From Escherichia coli (GTDB lineage Bacteria > Pseudomonadota > Gammaproteobacteria > Enterobacterales > Enterobacteriaceae), in NCBI RefSeq assembly GCF_003334785.1, contig NZ_QOWV01000009.1: DNA of 64,000 bases. One strand, given 5' to 3'. Made by a program: the position numbers and the translations under genes. A model generated the notes under the pieces. That model did no database searches. It was not told the origin of the DNA and was given only the letters and a program-made list of their open reading frames with translations. Positions 14,310-14,570 of this stretch are shown here, piece after piece; the stretch's first letter is position 1, and every line of letters begins with the position of its first letter.

Positions 14310-14500
14310 CTTTTGTTAACTCCTTTTTATAGATGCGGGAGGTAATTCCTCACCCCGGTGCCGATTTTCAGGCATCCTGATTTAACTTAGCACCCGCAAC
14401 TTAACTACAGGAAAACAAAGAGATAAATGTCTAATCCTGATGCAAATCGAGCCGATTTTTTAATCTTTACGGACTTTTACCCGCCTGGTTTATTAATTTC

Positions 14501-14531
14501 TTGACCTTCCCCTTGCTGGAAGGTTTAACCT
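14501..14531 (+). promoter_or_regulatory. copA promoter with CueR (MerR-type) operator
   Basis: -35 TTGACC (14501-14506), 19-bp spacer containing the dyad ACCTTCC-ccttgct-GGAAGGT (14504-14524), then -10-like TAACCT; the long spacer is typical of MerR-family activated promoters. Confidence 0.8.
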
Positions 14532-14570
14532 TTATCACAGCCAGTCAAAACTGTCTTAAAGGAGTGTTTT

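Follow-up and report, generated by a model that had tools for sequence, protein, structure and literature searches.

The glsA/copA intergenic gap of the window (the whole stretch of 64,000 nucleotides of Escherichia coli DNA analysed here) almost certainly contains, at positions 14501-14531, PcopA, the CueR-dependent sigma-70 promoter of copA. Sequence anatomy, gene identities, uniqueness of the site and conservation of its 19-bp geometry come from our own analysis, and CueR binding, DNA distortion, copper induction and occupancy by GadX, GadW and RpoS from the literature; nothing that contradicts the assignment was found. The feature is already known, and has been for about 25 years: E. coli PcopA and CueR were reportedly described by Outten (2000), Petersen and Moller (2000) and Stoyanov (2001). 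Since PcopA is already established as the paradigm of transcription activated through DNA distortion, and as the main switch by which E. coli responds to copper stress, finding it here adds nothing new. There are two by-products: the exact point at which glsA-ybaT interrupts an ancestral cueR-copA divergon, and confirmation from an independent comparison that the geometry of 19 bp accompanies the operator across phyla. The only item that may be new, an overlap between the promoter and a phage attachment site, concerns other strains and not the window.

Results

The copA locus

The window comes from an E. coli chromosome. The region shows 100% identity to K-12-like and BL21(DE3) genomes, and 5423 of 5426 complete E. 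coli genomes have it. According to both RefSeq annotation and NCBIfam scans, the genes are ordered qmcA, ybbJ, cueR, ybaT, glsA, copA, ybaQ, ybaP. Both also bear out the claim of the earlier note that copA, on the plus strand, diverges from glsA-ybaT, on the minus strand, the two being separated by a gap of 261 bp (14310-14570). copA (14571-17075, +) encodes a Cu(I)-exporting P-type ATPase of 834 aa (NF007952, 1745.7 bits) and is annotated as copA in ER1709 and MG1655. On the other side of the gap, glsA (13377-14309, -) encodes the 310-aa glutaminase A (NF009020, 560.5 bits, and annotation), followed by ybaT (12082-13374, -), a 430-aa APC-family permease according to annotation and profile scan. 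The regulator gene cueR (11550-11957, -) encodes a 135-aa Cu(I)-responsive activator of the MerR family (NF007590, 308.6 bits for a cutoff of 244; also TIGR02044, 207.5 bits for a cutoff of 147.4). Its product matches the 135-residue chains of PDB entries 1q05 and 4wlw over their full length (E = 7.7e-89) and also chains of 4wls, 6ldi, 7c17, 6xh7 and 6xh8, a list that includes structures of CueR with DNA and RNAP. cueR had been placed beyond glsA-ybaT, where it is indeed found, but at a distance of 2.6 kb, which is rather about 2.5 kb (2,547 bp from the cueR start codon at 11957 to the dyad).

Within copA, a slippery heptamer C_CCA_AAG (14771-14777, codons 67-69) is followed by GGC TAA in the -1 frame; it is the known programmed -1 frameshift that gives the 70-aa CopA(Z) chaperone. 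NC_000913.3 annotates the frameshift product as a joined CDS, 'soluble Cu(+) chaperone'.

The interval between ybaT and cueR (11958-12081), upstream of cueR, has no remnant CueR box at up to 3 mismatches, and neither a promoter nor a minus-strand terminator was predicted in it; cueR could therefore be co-transcribed with glsA-ybaT, a possible arrangement that was assumed in an older comparative paper. In the ER1709 annotation, a frameshifted gene scrap occupies about 11954-12051, between cueR and ybaT. Separately, in strain 24A16CRGN010 (L003 1-995) ybaT is adjoined by a TolC-family outer-membrane gene. An RTX/type-1-secretion locus that includes a CueR-like regulator has been described in strain 042, with synteny in O157:H7; between cueR and ybaT, the K-12-type window seems to have no more than a remnant of it left.

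Anatomy of the copA promoter

The elements of PcopA can be read directly from the sequence. The -35 hexamer TTGACC (14501-14506, +) fits the published PcopA geometry, and the -10 hexamer TAACCT (14526-14531, +) lies 2 bp past the core GGAAGG, as published (PMC8169799). The spacer between them, TTCCCCTTGCTGGAAGGTT (14507-14525, +), counts 19 bp, 2 bp above the optimum; this is the length that the earlier note had given. The CueR operator (14504-14524, on neither strand in particular), identified by its sequence and by consensus match, is a perfect dyad, ACCTTCC-N7-GGAAGGT, whose arms (ACCTTCC at 14504-14510 and GGAAGGT at 14518-14524) are fully complementary and enclose a 7-bp centre, CCTTGCT; beyond these 7-bp arms complementarity ends on both sides. 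The dyad had been described as lying in the spacer. That it is perfect holds true, but not all of it is in the spacer: it begins with 3 bp (ACC) that also close the -35 hexamer, and its other end falls 1 bp before the -10 hexamer. The half-sites are the exact CueR core CCTTCC-N7-GGAAGG (consensus from PMC8169799 and PMC1526738), and the dyad matches the published CueR signal ACCTTCCC-(5)-TGGAAGGT (PMC1526738). The copA ATG stands at 14571, with 40 bp between the -10 hexamer and the copA start. We infer the exact transcription starts of both copA and glsA: for copA, it is expected at 14537-14539 (+), 6-8 nt downstream of the -10 hexamer.

This anatomy agrees base for base with that published for PcopA, namely a 19-bp spacer, a CueR inverted repeat that overlaps the -35 by 3 bp and a core located 2 bp from the -10 (PMC8169799). 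Cryo-EM and crystal structures have been solved on PcopA, in which CueR lies on the DNA face opposite RNA polymerase, and bending and under-twisting set the hexamers about 55 Å apart, like in a 17-bp promoter; moving the CueR box by 1 bp impaired activation (PMC8169799). The structures and the 19-bp geometry together confirm that the copA promoter has the distortion geometry of CueR and other MerR-type activators, as previously proposed. Binding and reporter experiments, which the earlier note had named as checks, are also in print: CueR was found by FRET to bind PcopA both in vitro and in living cells, metal supplements activated a PcopA-lacZ fusion (PMC9396075), and promoter activity was assayed in vivo with a 250-bp PcopA-lacZ fusion to which CuSO4 was given (PMC8169799).

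From these elements, a mechanism can be proposed for the window. The TTGACC and TAACCT hexamers are 19 bp apart, which for RNA polymerase is 2 bp too far and leaves them out of helical phase. The CueR dimer, whose gene lies 2.55 kb off at 11550-11957, would occupy the dyad on the face opposite the polymerase and would hold PcopA in an inactive conformation when no Cu(I) is present. Once it has bound Cu(I) (or Ag or Au), CueR would kink and under-twist the spacer and so realign the hexamers, and the realigned promoter would then drive copA transcription from about 32-34 nt before the ATG.

The window shows no difference from the E. coli PcopA and CueR of 4WLW, 4WLS, 6LDI, 7C17, 6XH7 and 6XH8, which represent the same locus. 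PcueO has the same regulator and operator class; PcopA and PcueO have been called the sole two CueR targets in E. coli (PMC9396075), and the window lacks both cueO and a second CueR box. MerR/Pmer (Tn21, Tn501) and ZntR/PzntA belong to the same class, with a spacer of 19-20 bp, a dyad and DNA distortion (PMC1526738), but their half-sites and arm spacing are unlike those of PcopA (7-4-7 for MerR, an 11-11 palindrome in a 20-bp spacer for ZntR). In mer, moreover, the regulator gene is divergent from an overlapping promoter, whereas E. coli cueR is displaced by 2.5 kb by glsA-ybaT. What is found at the copA gap has the following traits of a CueR-type promoter: a supra-optimal spacer in the 19-20 bp range, a dyad overlapping the -35, core half-sites, an encoded CueR, control of a copper-detoxification gene and a spacer length that is conserved in related sites.

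Uniqueness of the operator in the window

The geometry of the dyad alone is not significant, because the window has 5 perfect 7-N7-7 inverted repeats when any sequence is allowed, for about 3.9 expected. Such repeats being as frequent as chance, the dyad could be thought an accidental inverted repeat with no regulatory role, copA being driven by another promoter in the gap, all the more as an ordinary sigma-70 scan of 14200-14700 predicted no promoter. The scan, however, was run with spacers of 16-18 bp and hence passes over a spacer of 19 bp, and the dyad is the exact CueR consensus. ACCTTCC-N7-GGAAGGT has a single exact copy in the window, the search for further copies that had been suggested returning no other; four additional matches were obtained at 3 mismatches, and these are within chance (5 matches in all vs a mean of 1.77, 2 of 100 shuffles reaching 5). 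A composite pattern of the -35, the dyad and TAnnnT is likewise unique in the window, and none of 100 shuffles contained it even when up to 2 mismatches were allowed; this pattern placed the -10 one base too far, so that the window site itself scored one mismatch. Since the 19-bp geometry is moreover conserved across phyla, a 40-mer over the promoter is near-invariant in about 5,400 E. coli genomes (see below), and published structures, binding and activation data already refute a chance dyad (PMC8169799, PMC9396075), we give this explanation practically no credence and retain PcopA.

An Rfam scan of 13900-15100 (E up to 1) detected no RNA family, and none was expected because the element lies upstream of the transcript. 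Searching the literature for the literal promoter string returned unrelated primer matches only.

Conservation of the 19-bp geometry

Searching one genome per species for TTGACCTTCC-N7-GGAAGGT gave at least 125 sites at at least 120 loci, in Proteobacteria, Clostridia and others; the listed sites were chosen by their -35 and dyad and are phylogenetically non-independent, and the positions that the pattern leaves free are informative. In the hexamer 19 bp after the -35, position 2 is an A in 123 of the 125 sites listed and position 6 a T in 93. This combined A2+T6 signature is present at spacer 19 in 91 of the 125 listed sites, vs at most 15 at spacers of 18 and 20-26. TAACCT is the commonest hexamer at the -10 position (8/125 listed), and a C directly precedes TTGACC in 96/125. 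The genomic context is also informative for the sites listed: in 58/125 an ORF for a CopA-like ATPase or an HMA-domain protein lies no more than 1.5 kb downstream, and 93/125 have a copper ATPase (CopA)-like or MerR-like gene on either side. Among the sites that have no such neighbour, one precedes cueO (Yersinia artesiana, 953 bits), and a multicopper oxidase and a CopL-like protein are seen at others. Altogether, the sequences point unmistakably to a 19-bp phasing that travels with the operator across phyla.

In several Clostridia MAGs (L006, L011, L013, L025, L027, L030, L049, L052 and others), TTGACCTTCC-N7-GGAAGGT, again with a spacer of 19 bp, lies before genes for MerR-family proteins about 213-220 aa long. 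The L027 protein scored 47 bits for a cutoff of 147 in the NCBIfam scan and hence does not count as a CueR equivalog. In the Firmicutes, another MerR subfamily appears to share the operator, and its members that carry it probably autoregulate.

At closer range, an alignment of 13 Enterobacterales promoters (A1) shows the block CTTGACCTTCCCC..G..GGAAGGTTTA.C.T to be invariant, the invariance of the operator being partly forced by the search pattern; outside the promoter core, neither flank can be aligned from one genus to another. Among E. coli genomes, the 40-mer at 14496-14535 is identical in 5404 of 5416 genomes and a control 40-mer at 14400-14439 in 5090 of 5398, in a comparison where the genomes are non-independent and megablast can miss variants.

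Insertion of glsA-ybaT into an ancestral divergon

In Superficieibacter, Enterobacter, Erwinia, Pantoea and Photorhabdus, copA directly follows qmcA-ybbJ-cueR, and the cueR ATG lies 10-12 bp before TTGACC (loci L023, L035, L068, L106, L119 and L046, all from other Enterobacterales); because of this spacing, the cueR promoter must overlap PcopA in the ancestral arrangement. Such compact cueR-copA divergons, known in Salmonella and most Enterobacterales, have the same promoter core and the same neighbours, qmcA-ybbJ-cueR/copA (PMC1526738), and differ from Escherichia, in which glsA(-ybaT) is inserted exactly between cueR and the -35. E. coli and E. albertii both carry glsA(-ybaT), and their similarity to the other genera ends at the C before TTGACC. 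That the Salmonella divergon has neither ybaS nor ybaT (PMC1526738) agrees with an insertion in Escherichia, and so does Djoko 2017, as far as it is cited in PMC6250119 and PMC9628877.

The glsA promoter and copper induction of glsA-ybaT

A glsA promoter had been predicted to share the gap with PcopA, and it does. The glsA (ybaS) core promoter lies at 14351-14384 (-), at ChIP-exo peaks of GadX, GadW and RpoS that fall 42-75 bp upstream of the glsA ATG, with the transcription start at about 14356. Window positions were obtained by subtracting the NC_000913.3 coordinate from 525950 (glsA being at 511641 in NC_000913.3), and NC_000913.3 is presumably offset by +776 from NC_000913.2, a value that fits the 'upstream' label of the peak. 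The peaks for ybaST are published as NC_000913.2 510790-510823, at 11.5 bp from the transcription start (PMC4918353 and supplement). A functional ybaS promoter has been delimited to 49-159 bp upstream of the ATG (PMC6250119), which corresponds to 14358-14468 in the window. Within the peak region, a -10-like hexamer, GAAAAT (14369-14364), would fit a glsA start near 14356. A weak terminator-like hairpin at 14368-14380 was dismissed (1 vs 0.4 expected, and inside the glsA core promoter).

The copA and glsA promoters therefore point away from each other, their starts lying about 180 bp apart. Copper induces glsA-ybaT, and the operon has a part in copper tolerance (PMC9628877; PMC10903455), so the CueR box could be conceived as a bidirectional element that also drives the copper induction of glsA-ybaT, as in compact divergent merR/merT regions; in the other Enterobacterales, where the cueR start codon is so close to the -35, the box does lie in such a bidirectional region. 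For the window, several observations make this very improbable: the glsA start and the GadX/GadW/RpoS peak (about 14351-14384) are about 150 bp away from the dyad, the window holds no second CueR dyad, and likeness to the ancestral cueR-copA region stops exactly one base before TTGACC. In addition, a review of the primary work presents ybaST regulation as having no direct link to CueR (PMC10903455). Because the copper induction of glsA-ybaT is thus reportedly not directly CueR-dependent, we consider the copA and glsA promoters as neighbours and not as one bidirectional CueR unit.

A candidate CpxR site between the two promoters

Between the divergent copA and glsA promoters sits a perfect CpxR consensus box, GTAAA-N5-GTAAA (14466-14480, -), 21-35 bp upstream of the PcopA -35, which the earlier note did not mention. 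The box is the only copy in the window, where 0.06 are expected (motif from PMC9600279), and in E. albertii it is not conserved. Regulation of copA by CpxR has been reported (PMC11005409), and when Cpx is activated copA goes up about 2-fold and glsA goes down to 0.01-0.29 of control (PMC9600279). With the tandem boxes that characterise CpxR-regulated promoters, 14466-14480 is a candidate CpxR site.

A probable prophage attachment core overlaps the CueR operator in other strains

Besides being part of PcopA, and without conflict with that role, positions 14500-14519 are very probably also the attachment site of P2-like temperate phages, which have these 20 bp in their own DNA and on integration rebuild the CueR promoter on the copA side. 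The segment, CTTGACCTTCCCCTTGCTGG (14500-14519, on neither strand in particular), comprises the -35 and the left part of the CueR operator; it is the attB core of P2-like prophages in other E. coli and is empty in the window. Full coverage of a 14250-14640 query was lacking in 21 E. coli genomes. In strain 24A16CRGN010, a 34.5-kb P2-family prophage sits inside the glsA/copA gap, with genes for an integrase, a repressor-like HTH protein, a replication endonuclease, portal, terminase, P2 capsid, tail and Ogr. At the two ends of this prophage (NZ_CM148325.1), CTTGACCTTCCCCTTGCTGG forms a 20-bp direct repeat (copies at L004 381-400 and 34997-35016); the core is also placed at about 422-441 of L005. 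The prophage has a full P2-type gene order, its integrase gene being located 70 bp from attL, at the glsA-side junction. On the copA side, the -35, the dyad and the -10 are all intact and everything upstream of the -35 is phage DNA. The core is thus directly repeated at the prophage ends with an integrase beside one junction, which is the structure of an attB site.

This configuration is recurrent. An integrase is present at the junction in 18 of 5,426 E. coli genomes and belongs to either of two lineages, which are about 77% identical in DNA and share the same crossover boundary; the second lineage is found at the same junction in NZ_CP013031.1, where the element spans only about 17.7 kb between junctions and may be degraded. 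In Citrobacter sp. R56, the 75 nt before the core (L099 854-928) can be aligned with the attR arm of the E. coli prophage at a score that none of 1000 shuffles attains, through repeated TGTGGAC(A/G)C motifs (TGTGGACAC-type) and an AATCAG inverted repeat. This likeness suggests that a related integrative element uses the same core in another genus, at a locus that covers 2.5 kb only and in which no whole prophage is seen.

Against this, integration and excision at the core are predicted from sequence, and a collection of isolated phages contained no close relative, the sole match being to a Citrobacter phage integrase (80% over 111 bp). When the upstream regions of Citrobacter and others were compared with the E. 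coli prophage by blastn and tblastx, nothing was found at standard thresholds and only the short attR arm aligned. A literature search for copA/cueR as an integration site of P2-like phages found no description.

It is a more tentative idea, which we hold to be rather doubtful on balance, that 14500-14519 is a recurrent insertion point, acting as att core for at least two P2-like lineages and a Citrobacter element and perhaps also as the point of entry of glsA-ybaT. The glsA-ybaT boundary lies at the identical base, the C that precedes TTGACC, which suggests, speculatively, that this acid-resistance cassette came in through the same hotspot. Whatever the origin of glsA-ybaT, each prophage insertion regenerates the CueR promoter next to copA but swaps the CpxR box and the glsA side for phage DNA, and in lysogens copA could be uncoupled from the upstream CpxR input.

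On the other side of copA, ybaQ (17391-17732), encoding a HigA-like antitoxin, is missing between copA and ybaP in strain 24A16CRGN010 (L004 37571-37767), and ybaQ is therefore variable among E. coli.
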